64,000 nucleotides of DNA from the IMG/VR virus record IMGVR_UViG_3300042301_004349, positions 1 to 64,000 of that record; one strand, 5' to 3'. This document shows positions 28,209 to 42,778 of the stretch, one piece after another; within the stretch, counting starts at the first letter, position 1, and each line of letters begins with the position of its first letter. Origin of the DNA: a virus. Below the pieces are notes generated by a model. That model did not search any database. It was not told where the DNA came from and saw nothing but the letters and a program-made list of their open reading frames with translations. Position numbers and translations under genes: made by a program.

Positions 28209-28217
28209 AGCAAATTG

Positions 28218-28594
28218 TGGAGGTGAAGGGAGTCGAACCCTTGTCCAAATACGGATTTAATAAATCTCGTTCACAAGCTTAGTTCGTTTTTCTAAACTGA
28301 ACAAAATATTCGGTTGGTTCTTCACCATCGGCAACCGATAAACAATGGGTGATTCGATTTCGGGTTCAATCACTTTTCCACCTTGGTACACATTCTATTT
28401 TAAGTCCCACGATGTGTGCGGGAGGGATTAGGCAGCTACTGCGTAATCAGCACCAACGAATGCCATAGCATCTTCGAAGGTCATTGTAGATAATTCTACG
28501 TCATTTATTGTTCGATAGGTATTTACGGATTTCCATCTAACCCGGCTTGCATCAACTCACCAACTCATCGCACCTGTCAAAACCAGGCACCCCC
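28218..28594 (-). ncRNA. ssrA: tmRNA
   Basis: 5' GGGGGTGCCTGGTTTTGAC, 3' GGGTTCGACTCCCTTCACCTCCA, G3.U70 pair; tag ORF 28428..28502 encodes DVELSTMTFEDAMAFVGADYAVAA*. Confidence 0.95.
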
Positions 28595-28917: not shown

Positions 28918-29038
28918 AACAATAAATATTAGATACACTGTCTGTACTGTTAAACTGTCTCAATACTACCTTTATCGTAGCAGAGGTTTTCTTCATTCTT
29001 AGCGTCCGTCCAGTCCTTCTTTCGAAGCAGTGTATTTG

Positions 29039-29122
29039 TACCAGGAGCGGGAATCGAACCCGCACTCGCGTTGGCGAACAAGATTTTAAGTCTTGCGTGT
29101 CTACCTATTCCACCACCCCGGC
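29039..29122 (-). tRNA. tRNA-Leu(TAA)
   Basis: type II cloverleaf, CAAGA-CTTAAAA-TCTTG. Confidence 0.95.
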
Positions 29123-29163
29123 ATATGCAACTTTTAAACCACCCAATGAGTTGCCAACATATG

Positions 29164-29322
29164 CTGTAGGGGAAGGATTCGAACCTCCACGCGGCGATTC
29201 GATAAATGACATTTTTGCTAGCTAGCCTGTGGTCAACCCATTATCATTTATCTGTCTCGAACTCCGCACCCTCGAGACGGGAGGGTATGTCTGCCAAGCG
29301 TACGCCTTTTCACCACCCTACA
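29164..29322 (-). ncRNA. aberrant tRNA-like RNA (159 nt) with about 80-nt variable arm
   Basis: acceptor TGTAGGG/CCCTACA-G, T-arm GGAGG-TTCGAAT-CCTTC, anticodon arm CCCTC-CCGTCTC-GAGGG. Confidence 0.8.
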
Positions 29323-29325
29323 ATT

Positions 29326-29553
29326 CTAGTTAATTCTTGTTTGATTACGTCTTACTTCTTCTGCTTCTTTATAAACTCTAACCCAAGTTAAAAATACATC
29401 AACAGGAGCTAAAATCCAACACATAATAATTAGAGCTAGACTTTCAAGACCTGGTGATATTCCTAGACCACCAGACATGACATCTCTGTTCCATTTTTTA
29501 ATAGACATTACAATGCAGTAAAAAAAGCAAGTAAGGTAATAAATCCAAAACAT
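29326..29553 (-). CDS. small membrane protein
   Basis: two hydrophobic segments. Confidence 0.65.
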   Translation of the reverse strand: MFWIYYLTCFFYCIVMSIKKWNRDVMSGGLGISPGLESLALIIMCWILAPVDVFLTWVRVYKEAEEVRRNQTRIN

Positions 29554-29765: not shown

Positions 29766-29845
29766 ATATTGTTAATTTACACTTTTCTTTTTGCCCATCC
29801 AACATCTTTTTAAATTTTTTATTATGTCAAATAAACGTTGGCACG

Positions 29846-29919
29846 TGGGCCTGGTAGGAATCGAACCTACTACCTTCACATTATGAGTGTGCCGCTCTAA
29901 CCGATTGAGCTACAGGTCC
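29846..29919 (-). tRNA. tRNA(CAT), probably Ile2 (lysidine type)
   Basis: CT-CAT-AA loop; C4:G69 and C5:G68 TilS determinants; no initiator features. Confidence 0.85.
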
Positions 29920-29925
29920 TTGTTG

Positions 29926-29997
29926 AGCTCCCACTCGGAATCGAACCAAGTTATCGTGATTACAAGTCACGCGCATCGCCAGCAATGCTTTAGGAGC
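29926..29997 (-). tRNA. tRNA-Thr(TGT)
   Basis: CGTGA-CTTGTAA-TCACG. Confidence 0.9.
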
Positions 29998-30004
29998 ATT
30001 AATG

Positions 30005-30076
30005 GGTGTAAGGACGGTATCGAACCGTCTTATCGAGCTCCACAAACTCGCGCTTCACCTTAAAGCTTCAGACACC
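30005..30076 (-). tRNA. tRNA-His(GTG)
   Basis: CGAGT-TTGTGGA-GCTCG, G-1:C73; two acceptor-stem mismatches. Confidence 0.85.
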
Positions 30077-30087
30077 ATGTATTTTAG

Positions 30088-30159
30088 TACTCAGTACGGG
30101 ATTCGAACCCGTATTACATCCGTGAAAGGGATGTGACCTAGCCCTTAGTCGAACTGAGC
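30088..30159 (-). tRNA. tRNA-Glu(TTC)
   Basis: CATCC-CTTTCAC-GGATG. Confidence 0.95.
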
Positions 30160-41149: not shown

Positions 41150-42778
41150 TTACATCCCAAATCCTGCCATACCACCCATGTCATTGTCCTTTTTCTCATT
41201 AGGTTTTTCATGGATAACACATTCAGTCATCAATAATGTAACTGCAGCTGCAGCAGCGTTTTCAAGGGCGCAACGAACTACTTTAGTTGGATCGATGATA
41301 CCTGAATCAAATGCATCTACAATTGCTCCTTTGCTAATATCTGGTACCATGTTTTTAGTTTTAATTAATTGCATCCACCAATCGCTAGAATCTTCACCAG
41401 CATTAGTTAAGATTTGATTAAATGGTTTACCACAAGCCATAAACACGATTTGTTTACCTTTACTTTTATCATCACTTCCTAATGAATTGTTGATATCAAG
41501 TGCTTTTCTAGCTTGTAATAAAGCAACTCCAGCACCTGGTAAAATACCTTCTTCAAGAGCAGCTTTTGTTGCTTGTAAAGCATCGTCAATACGATCTTTC
41601 TTTTCTTCGATTTCAATTTCATTACCACCACCAACATTGATAATAGCAACACCACCAACCATTTTACCTAAACGCTCTTGATATTTTTCAATCTCATAAG
41701 GTGTAGTGTCTGGTTTGTCCATTTGAGCTTTAATATTCAAGATACGCTCTTCAATCTTATCAACATTACCTTTACCATCAACAATTGTAGTTGTATCTTT
41801 TCCAACAGTAGCAACTCTAGATTTACCTAACCAGTTAATATCTAGTTTAGCTAATGTCATACCTTTATCAGATGAAATAACCTGACCTCCAGTTAATGTA
41901 GCAATGTCTTCCAAAATTGCTGTTCTACGATCTCCAAATTCAGGAGCCTTAACAGCACATACTTGCAATACACCTCTAGCTTTATTCATTACTAGGGTAG
42001 CAAGTGCTTCACCATCAATGTCTTCAGCAATAATTAAAAGAGATTTACTCTCAGTAGAAACACGTTCAAGTAGTGGAAGTAAATCCTTAACTGCACTAAT
42101 ACGTTTGTCATAAATTAAAATATAAGGATCATTTAAAGTAACTTGCATTGAGTTATTATCAGTTACAAAGTAAGGTGATTTATAACCTCTATCAAATTGT
42201 AAACCTTCTACAACCTCAAGTGTTGTTTCACCTGTACGTGATTTTTCTACTGTTACTACTCCATCTCTACCTACTTTATCAATTGCTGTTGCAACGATAT
42301 TACCAATTTCTTCATCACCATTTGCTGATAATGTAGCAATTTGTTTAATTTGGTTTTCGTCAGTTACATCTACTGACATTGATTTTAATTCATCAACTAC
42401 AATCTTAACTGCCTCTTCAATACCACGTTTTACCTGAGTAGCATTAGTTGAAGCATAAGCTGTCGCTTGTAAGGCCTGTGTTGCAATTGAATAAGCTAGT
42501 ACTGTTGATGTTGTTGTACCATCACCTGCTTGATCAACCGTTTTAGATGCTGCTTGTTTAATAACAGTAGCTGCCATGTTTTCAATTGGATCTTCCAATG
42601 TAATTGACTTAGCTACAGTTACACCATCTTTTGTTGATGCTACTTGGCCATATTCTTTTTCAATTAATACGTTACGTCCAAAGGGACCCATCGTAGTTGC
42701 TACAGCTTTGTAGACCTTGTCTACACCTTCCTGTAGTTTTTCTTTTGCTTCGCGATCGAAACTGATTATTTTACTCAT
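41150..42778 (-). CDS. groEL: chaperonin GroEL
   Basis: TKDGVTVA, GDGTTT, FDRGY, GIIDP, GGM tail. Confidence 0.98.
   Translation of the reverse strand: MSKIISFDREAKEKLQEGVDKVYKAVATTMGPFGRNVLIEKEYGQVASTKDGVTVAKSITLEDPIENMAATVIKQAASKTVDQAGDGTTTSTVLAYSIATQALQATAYASTNATQVKRGIEEAVKIVVDELKSMSVDVTDENQIKQIATLSANGDEEIGNIVATAIDKVGRDGVVTVEKSRTGETTLEVVEGLQFDRGYKSPYFVTDNNSMQVTLNDPYILIYDKRISAVKDLLPLLERVSTESKSLLIIAEDIDGEALATLVMNKARGVLQVCAVKAPEFGDRRTAILEDIATLTGGQVISSDKGMTLAKLDINWLGKSRVATVGKDTTTIVDGKGNVDKIEERILNIKAQMDKPDTTPYEIEKYQERLGKMVGGVAIINVGGGNEIEIEEKKDRIDDALQATKAALEEGILPGAGVALLQARKALDINNSLGSDDKSKGKQIVFMACGKPFNQILTNAGEDSSDWWMQLIKTKNMVPDISKGAIVDAFDSGIIDPTKVVRCALENAAAAAVTLLMTECVIHEKPNEKKDNDMGGMAGFGM

Follow-up and report, generated by a model that had tools for sequence, protein, structure and literature searches.

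An apparently tRNA-derived RNA with a giant variable arm and aspartate-type marks in Bacteroidota and their phages

The DNA analysed here, hereafter the window, comprises 64,000 nucleotides (nt): the opening 64 kb of an IMG/VR virus record (IMGVR_UViG_3300042301_004349) that is 171 kb long and bears terminal repeats. On its minus strand, at 29164-29322, lies a gene for an RNA shaped like transfer RNA (tRNA), 159 nt long from position 1 through the discriminator G73, with a variable arm of some 80 nt. Comparison with relatives indicates that this RNA is almost certainly a member of an uncatalogued family of tRNA-derived RNAs in Bacteroidota and their phages. As far as sequence can tell, it is a selected, tRNA-derived RNA with an intact chargeable end that bears aspartate and amidotransferase marks, and its anticodon loop appears unfit for normal decoding; the RNA is, we think probable, not a normal decoder. 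Our preferred reading of its function, held with less than even confidence, is that of a non-decoding carrier which would be charged with aspartate, perhaps amidated to asparagine, and which phages would have acquired from their hosts.

Conventional tools are of little help in recognising the element. ARAGORN makes no call at these positions, and Rfam 15, including RF00005, provides no match there, whether at the gathering score or with E relaxed to 10. The single-sequence fold of the RNA is unremarkable (z = -1.4), so that the evidence has to come from its relatives. When the 3' end was used as an exact query, seven viral contigs were recovered, and a second search, anchored on the arm tip GGGTTGACCAC and the T loop, was carried out in viral and bacterial collections. 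Under a filter for a perfect 7-bp acceptor stem, at least 78 distinct phage copies of 141-176 nt were obtained. Two covariance models were then available, R1 built from the phage copies and R2 from bacterial copies only, with the RNA of the window excluded. R1 scores the latter at 163 bits. R2 matches 29164-29322 on the minus strand exactly and over its full length, with 127 bits (E 2.6e-38); its second-best match within the window, to the adjacent tRNA-Leu(UAA), scores 45.5 bits. The whole 171-kb phage genome contains just one copy. These results bear out the preliminary description of the element, made from the letters of the window, as regards its coordinates, its canonical acceptor and T arms and its discriminator G; the covariance model of homologues, which that description had proposed as a check, did uncover homologues with conserved structure.

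The family extends well beyond phages. Among the fetched Bacteroidota loci, R1 yields at least 85 family-level matches of 75-148 bits, frequently as tandem copies, as well as two weaker matches: L187 (33.6 bits), which is a degraded copy, and L129 (29.5 bits), which is an ordinary tRNA. The few pattern-matching contigs from other phyla contained no family-level R1 match, the best being the ordinary tRNA of L129. Fifteen of 151 evenly sampled Bacteroidota genomes were positive with R1, and homologues with conserved, covarying structure occur in hundreds of phage and bacterial contigs. No copy was found among GenBank phage isolates at blastn sensitivity, Rfam holds no family entry for the RNA, and no description of a giant-armed, Asp-like RNA was found in the searchable literature. 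One csRNA catalogue (PMC10690425) lists a motif, DNAVirus_1850, with 27 IMG/VR matches, one of them over a tRNA-Asp call, and this motif might correspond to the present family.

Covariation, like the R2 score, puts the element well beyond chance. Across 79 phage copies, the 42-pair structure shows standard pairs in 90% of cells, as against 41-51% when partners are slid, and 606 double-sided changes, as against 194 in shuffles; none of 500 shuffles reaches the observed values. Every helix covaries, namely the acceptor, D, anticodon and T stems and the three helices of the variable arm (V1, V2 and V3; Table 1). All seven acceptor pairs do so, with 98-100% of cells paired in the phage alignment, while the anticodon stem is 100% paired with compensatory changes and the T stem is 100% paired with three of its five pairs covarying. 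The composition of individual pairs varies: GC 43, AU 23 and GU 4 at D pair 10-25; UA 66, CG 6 and UG 5 at D pair 11-24; and AU 28, CG 25, UA 19 and others in V2. The earlier suggestion that intact stems argue for selection rather than decay is thus upheld by covariation in all helices and by the R2 score.

The body is a class II cloverleaf of tRNA-Leu type. Its D stem is regular (G10-Y25, U11-A24, G12-C23, A13·A22), with the loop AAUUGGCAG, and the arm is closely similar to its counterpart in the adjacent tRNA-Leu. The preliminary description had called the D region enlarged and of class II type; the type stands, and the supposed enlargement proves to be a normal stem of 3-4 bp, as in tRNA-Leu, with a hairpin inserted in the D loop. 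Of 77 phage copies, 35 have a D loop of 9-13 nt, and the other 42 carry the hairpin, which brings theirs to 18-36 nt; nearly every bacterial copy is without it. No variation is seen at U8, G9, A14 or in the T loop and hardly any at G18G19, and most copies have U at position 48; the RNA is accordingly expected to fold into an L. Three further candidates were discarded. Pairing of AGAC on the 3' side of the D arm with GUCU of the anticodon loop fails because the G varies between G, A and U without compensation; GUGGU (positions 7-11) does not pair with ACCAC of the arm tip, as positions 10 and 11 covary instead with 25 and 24; and TTGAC within GGGTTGACCAC, tried as an internal -35 box, is followed by no conserved -10 box.

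The length of the variable region ranges from 72 to 92 nt among phage copies and from 44 to 127 nt among bacterial ones. Its conserved parts are V1, a 5'-side bulge of 3-4 nt, V2, an A-rich asymmetric internal loop, V3 – a long and freely covarying helix – and the tip GGGUUGACCAC. The architecture first proposed for the RNA of the window, an arm of about 80 nt with a UGCGG/CCGCG base, a 10-bp helix and a 32-nt loop, survives except for its middle helix, which was given as TTC/GAA and which covariation places at CGA/UCG. The internal loop sets RAYA opposite GAA in the phage subfamily of the window and GAUAAA opposite CUAA in bacteria; its likeness to the UAA/GAN motif is a lead only. As the tip motif had served as a search anchor, its conservation was assessed in a model-found sample, which is unbiased by the motif: 12 of 17 bacterial copies have it letter for letter, and one more has it with a single change. 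Short forms of 115-132 nt dispense with the tip and keep the internal loop. Short-armed relatives of 115-119 nt without the tip motif, which adjoin long copies or the AsnC-like gene described below, include L278 and L279 (in tandem in one Bacteroidota genome), L156:4017-4134, L189:3537-3654, L179:6171-6286 and L193:1512-1630; some differ at positions 33/34, L278 and L279 reading CUUUCUC (UUC, glutamate-type) and L156 and L189 reading CGAUCUC.

Searches for a target of the tip in trans were negative: in five carrier genomes, the 10-mer and its complement were no commoner than a reversed control, and no multi-copy site emerged. The anticodon GUC can pair with GAC of the tip motif, over 3 bp only, and both are invariant. 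Palindromes of at least 8 nt follow the tip in 41% of copies, as against 6% of shuffles. They are a feature of the phage lineage, with none in bacterial copies, and those of 8-12 nt read GCUUGCAAGC, AGCCGGCU, GCGCGC and, in the window, GCUAGCUAGC. The last may possibly form a small hairpin or a dimerisation site, and loop-loop dimerisation is conceivable because several of the palindromes are too short for a stable hairpin.

The letters retained at the acceptor end and in the anticodon loop point towards aspartate. G73 is invariant in phage and bacterial copies, and the first pair is U1-A72 in 76 of 77 phage and 66 of 66 bacterial copies (142 of the 143 parsed). C74 follows G73 at 29163 in the window, in all 78 phage copies and in 81 of 82 bacterial ones; among the ordinary tRNAs of the same phage loci it follows the discriminator in 405 of 430, and CCA is seldom encoded. 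The anticodon is GUC in 77 of 77 phage and 64 of 66 bacterial copies, and C38 is invariant in the former and near invariant in the latter. Elongator tRNAs have a purine at position 37. Here that position is U in 76 of 77 phage and 66 of 66 bacterial copies (142 of 143 overall), while position 33 is C in 40 and U in 36 phage copies, and U in 57 and C in five bacterial ones. The RNA of the window, with C33 and U37, thus departs from the U33 and purine 37 of a canonical elongator, which confirms the original reading of its loop as CCGTCTC with a nominal GTC anticodon.

The bacterial aspartate identity set consists of G73, G10, G34, U35, C36 and C38 (PMC9976931). All six letters recognised by aspartyl-tRNA synthetase (AspRS) are present in the window, and all but G10 are near invariant family-wide; position 10 is G in 47, A in 23 and another letter in nine copies (n=79). 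ARAGORN identifies 95 of 151 cores as tRNA-Asp(GUC) once the arm has been removed computationally. The first pair carries a second message. GatCAB, the amidotransferase, reads U1-A72 and rejects G1-C72 and U20a (PMC9976931); the RNA of the window has the determinant U1-A72 and lacks the antideterminant G1-C72, and its D loop, GGCAG, is of tRNA-Leu type, the extra nucleotide being A instead of U, and also contains an insert of 11 nt. Bacterial tRNA-Asp strictly conserves G1-C72 (PMC9976931), in place of which the RNA of the window has U1-A72. The ordinary tRNA-Asp of three carrier genomes has both G1-C72 and A37 and coexists with the giant-armed RNA, and the ordinary tRNA-Asn examined in three carrier genomes has U1-A72. 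Sampled phage-encoded tRNA-Asn(GUU) genes, by contrast with that bacterial tRNA-Asn, begin with G1-C72. As for tRNA-Leu identity, invariant G73 stands where A73 would be expected, and G73 is listed as an antideterminant of LeuRS (PMC9976931).

From these marks we lean, by a little, towards charging of the giant-armed RNA with aspartate; its link to GatCAB and asparagine appears more doubtful. The sequence of events we envisage is as follows. RNase P and the 3' processing enzymes would cut the RNA from a tRNA-cluster transcript, and CCA would be added as for its neighbours. AspRS could then charge it with aspartate by way of G73, GUC and C38, while U37, often C33, and the huge arm would keep it off the ribosome. 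Since GatCAB reads U1-A72, and the RNA has this pair, the enzyme may convert the bound aspartate to asparagine; the RNA might then serve asparagine metabolism as a dedicated carrier or scaffold, controlled in the host by an AsnC-like regulator. The phage would have taken the gene from a Bacteroidota host and would supply the RNA during infection, much as it does tRNAs and transfer-messenger RNA (tmRNA). In its fullest form – a tRNA-Leu-derived RNA re-tooled for charging by AspRS and amidation by GatCAB, with asparagine or another product made off the ribosome under AsnC-type control, an arm that docks an enzyme complex or release factor, and phages that carry it as an auxiliary 'metabolic RNA' – this proposal is speculative and rather unlikely to hold in every part. 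Processing like that of a tRNA finds support in the position of the gene in a tRNA/tmRNA cluster and in C74, as in ordinary tRNAs. RNA-library contigs (Logan) from three studies cover the element, which is weak evidence of expression in that they give neither ends, strand, level nor CCA; one of them, at depth 315 and from a related phage, joins the element to tRNA-Leu.

Gene neighbourhoods in bacteria also bear on the proposed link to asparagine. At 41 of 69 bacterial loci, a gene of about 155 amino acids (aa) with AsnC-type domains lies about 150 nt upstream of the RNA on the opposite strand. Its product is closest to Escherichia coli AsnC, at 172 bits full length as against 47 for Lrp, and falls short of the AsnC equivalog cut-off of 227. 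The E. coli arrangement, where asnA adjoins asnC, differs in that the giant-armed RNA occupies the place of asnA in carriers. We compared 39 Bacteroidota genomes, 19 carriers and 20 non-carriers, in counts without phylogenetic correction: the AsnC-like gene is found in all 19 carriers (adjacent to the RNA in 11) and in four of the 20 non-carriers, GatB in all 19 and in 17, respectively, and AsnA in none of the 39. Carriers also have AsnRS (19 of 19) and GlnRS (17 of 19), and therefore keep GatCAB though it is not needed for tRNA charging. Other neighbours are a TrmB-type tRNA (m7G46) methyltransferase gene (PF02390), just downstream of the RNA in seven bacterial loci, and an AMP-binding enzyme gene, downstream in 12 (loci L123-L202 in both cases). 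The carriers include Arcicella gelida, Aquirufa ecclesiirivi and Niastella. In the first of these, a DUF805 RNA motif (RF03081, 69.7 bits; L139:7259-7325, minus strand) lies some 2.7 kb away from the giant-armed RNA and is probably unrelated to it.

Several considerations weigh against the carrier proposal, beginning with the genome counts, which are confounded by phylogeny, the carriers probably belonging to a few related orders. Two predictions also failed. Carriers were expected to lack asparagine synthetase, and AsnB-type genes exceed the family cut-off in 15 of 19, so that the RNA is not needed as the sole route to asparagine; their tRNA-Asn was expected to lack U1-A72 and has it, so that GatCAB already has a conventional possible substrate. 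SufB and SufC genes come after the AsnC-like gene in 18 loci, and the latter may regulate those instead. The phage itself encodes no AspRS, AsnB, GatB or class IIb synthetase. We know of no way in which asparagine might be released from the RNA. Class II synthetases face the variable side of tRNA, and an 80-nt arm could therefore clash with AspRS. Lastly, extra D-loop nucleotides act as GatCAB antideterminants in tRNA-Asp (PMC9976931), and the D loop of the giant-armed RNA is large, often with an insert; G1-C72 helps AspRS (PMC9976931), so that U1-A72 may lower charging.

Much of what has been described would also suit a structural or regulatory tRNA mimic which is not aminoacylated and which binds AspRS, GatCAB, a modification enzyme or another partner to titrate, scaffold or report, whether as a transamidosome-like scaffold or in control of starvation responses. 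Within the arm, the conserved tip motif and A-rich internal loop look like recognition surfaces, the letters of the anticodon loop are kept though decoding is unlikely, the gene is linked to an amino-acid-sensing regulator, and the palindrome frequent in phages could dimerise the RNA. We nonetheless judge such a mimic unlikely. With its 7-bp stem, its invariant G73 and a C74 like that of genuine tRNAs, the acceptor end lacks nothing required for charging, and this conservation is hard to square with an uncharged mimic unless some 3'-end chemistry is involved.

Decoding by the giant-armed RNA, as a working tRNA-Asp isoacceptor for GAC and GAU whose arm is an add-on for regulation, stability or recruitment, strikes us as improbable. 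To be sure, the cloverleaf is complete, the core nucleotides are canonical, GUC and G73 are in place, U33 is found in 57 of 66 bacterial copies, and long-armed class II tRNAs do function on ribosomes. Against this stand the invariant U37 where elongators have a purine, C33 in half of the phage copies, that of the window included, and U1-A72 in place of the strictly conserved G1-C72. An ordinary tRNA-Asp also coexists with the giant-armed RNA in three carrier genomes and at 12 phage loci (tRNA-Asn accompanies the RNA at 15), and the arm of the latter is three to four times longer than that of any known decoder (PMC7609411).

Decoy functions, which the preliminary description had raised with regard to nucleases and synthetases, fare worse. 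On this account, phages would deploy the RNA in counter-defence, soaking up an anticodon nuclease or immune effector aimed at tRNAs with GUN anticodons. Phage copies usually lie in tRNA arrays, and it is in keeping with a decoy that many phages carry the RNA, some with few or no tRNAs nearby (14 of 78 loci have none in the fetched flanks and 19 have one), and that phage copies form a subfamily of their own, with C33 and the palindrome. The family is, however, chromosomal in Bacteroidota, often in tandem and with conserved synteny to the AsnC-like gene, so that its primary function is cellular; nor are defence genes linked to it. A decoy role seems decidedly improbable, and is unlikely to be primary.

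Very little favours either a non-decoding class II tRNA charged by SerRS, another early suggestion, or removal of the arm as an intron to give an ordinary tRNA, and we regard this pair of explanations as very unlikely. G73, G2-C71 and the long arm are indeed serine determinants (PMC9976931), and to that extent the suggestion was sound, but A72 takes the place of C72, and U11-A24 that of C11-G24 in 66 of 79 copies. RNA-library contigs span the arm and none contains a joint that skips it, a search which a rare spliced form could escape, and U1-A72 and U37 would persist after excision. Bacterial introns of any type are not known at this site. The same contigs run unbroken across the arm, and nothing points to release of a processed small RNA, for which the element had been suggested as a carrier.

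The switch at the centre of the preliminary description, in which an unpaired GAGAC in the arm pairs with GUCUC of the anticodon loop in a pseudoknot that hides or exposes the anticodon, is scarcely credible and may be rejected: the 5-bp complement is exact in the copy of the window, but a Watson-Crick run of at least five occurs in 11% of 157 copies as against 7% when shuffled, G65 and A66 of the supposed bulge sit within the covarying V2 helix, and the covariation of loop and bulge that had been proposed as a check is absent, since the anticodon loop never varies and the arm segment does so freely (GACA, GAUA, AAUA, AACA; GAUAAA in bacteria) without keeping complementarity.

The virus which carries the element is a distant T4-type phage, with a PolB 36% identical to that of Microcystis phage Mel-JY01, and also encodes GroEL, a ribonucleotide reductase and a DnaB-like helicase. 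Its whole tRNA set consists of five genes (Leu, Met, Thr, His and Glu) together with the tmRNA (Table 1); a tmRNA is likewise present at 14 of the 78 phage loci with the giant-armed RNA. Immediately upstream of the RNA is an open reading frame of 75 aa, and at 28 of 79 phage loci homologues occupy the same place on the same strand, separated from the RNA by 6 nt in the median. These share the motifs SPGLE, APVD and LTWxR, and searches of Pfam, PHROGs and NCBIfam yielded no match. The gene order makes the reading frame a candidate partner of the RNA; it could be co-transcribed with it, the cut by RNase P defining the 3' end of its mRNA.

Table 1. Positions of the giant-armed RNA's parts and of neighbouring features in the window
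Feature	Position	Strand	Remarks
Acceptor stem, 5' strand UGUAGGG	29316-29322	-	pairs with CCCUACA 29165-29171; first pair U1-A72
D arm, tRNA-Leu type	29287-29313	-	stem GUG(A)/(A)CAU; loop AAA...UUGGCAG; inserted hairpin ~29296-29307
Anticodon arm CCCUC-CCGUCUC-GAGGG	29269-29285	-	loop 29274-29280: C33, G34 U35 C36, U37, C38
Variable region, 80 nt	29189-29268	-	V1, V2 and V3 helices and A-rich internal loop
V1 UGCGG/CCGCG	29264-29268 with 29190-29194	-	covaries
V2 CGA/UCG	29257-29259 with 29195-29197	-	covaries
A-rich internal loop	GACA 29253-29256 opposite GAA 29198-29200	-	
GAGAC	29254-29258	-	last two letters of V2 and first three of internal loop
V3, 10-bp helix GAUAAAUGAU/GUCAUUUAUC	29243-29252 with 29201-29210	-	covaries; 32-nt capping loop
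Arm-tip loop motif GGGUUGACCAC	29229-29239	-	
Perfect palindrome GCUAGCUAGC	29217-29226	-	3' of tip motif
T arm GGAGG-UUCGAAU-CCUUC	29172-29188	-	canonical loop UUCGAAU
75-aa open reading frame	29326-29553	-	two predicted membrane helices; ends 3 nt before RNA 5' end
tRNA-Leu(UAA)	29038-29122	-	
tRNAs Met, Thr, His, Glu	29845-30159	-	
tmRNA	28215-28594	-	Rfam 100.6 bits; tag peptide DVELSTMTFEDAMAFVGADYAVAA; ~570 nt from element
GroEL-type chaperonin, full-length	41150-42778	-	phrog_5725, E 3e-151

If these assertions are true, Bacteroidota and hundreds of their phages carry an abundant, strongly constrained tRNA derivative which standard annotation misses, and which would represent a new class of tRNA-like RNA, having kept the signals for two aminoacyl-tRNA enzymes and dropped those for decoding. 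A non-coding 'auxiliary metabolic gene' would also be added to the phage repertoire. The questions of why bacteria with AsnRS and GlnRS retain GatCAB, and of whether tRNA-dependent amino-acid synthesis can be uncoupled from translation, become testable. The family merits an Rfam model, as its genes are otherwise read as intergenic DNA or broken tRNAs.

Comparison with known systems places the RNA nearest to bacterial class II tRNA-Leu (RF00005), with which it shares the 7/5 acceptor/T branch, U8, A14, G18G19, a TΨC-type loop, a variable arm that begins at position 45, and a D arm (GUGGUGAAA..UUGGCAGACAY) near that of the neighbouring tRNA-Leu. It differs in its G73 rather than A73, U1-A72, aspartate-like loop with U37, and an arm of 72-92 nt with motifs of its own as against 13-21 nt; RF00005 and ARAGORN, moreover, are blind to it. 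With tRNA-Asp it has G34, U35, C36 and C38 of the loop in common, the exceptions being the invariant U37 and the variable Y33. The tRNA-Asn and tRNA-Gln of the indirect AspRS and GatCAB pathway (Thermus, Deinococcus and many bacteria) match it in joining U1-A72 and G73 to an anticodon accepted by AspRS, the combination that permits amidation of an aspartylated RNA (PMC9976931), and carrier genomes do keep GatCAB. Unlike the tRNA-Asn of that pathway, the giant-armed RNA has GUC rather than GUU, is not built for decoding and has a large D loop, and its carriers also possess ordinary tRNA-Asn and AsnRS.

T4-type phages offer a further parallel in rnaC and rnaD (species 1 and 2), small stable RNAs of 119-139 nt among the phage tRNA genes, the former with a tRNA-like acceptor and T arm. 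Homology was rejected, as R1 scores rnaC at 16.6 bits, within the 15.6-19.6 of ordinary T4 tRNAs, and rnaC is without the aspartate-like loop and the arm motifs. Unusually long variable arms are shared with tRNA-Sec, selC* tRNA-Cys and allo-tRNAs, carriers whose amino acid is converted after charging and which are kept from EF-Tu (PMC5389517, PMC7609411); their branches are 8/5, 9/4, 8/4 or 9/3 and their arms do not exceed some 20 nt, as compared with a 7/5 branch and an arm of about 80 nt in the present RNA, whose anticodon is neither UCA nor CUA. Finally, the tRNA-like domain of tmRNA and the YrlA Y RNAs (PMC4201824) exemplify tRNA mimicry in a non-decoding role, and tmRNA is likewise borne by phages. 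Those modules have no true anticodon arm or full cloverleaf, whereas the giant-armed RNA keeps all four arms.

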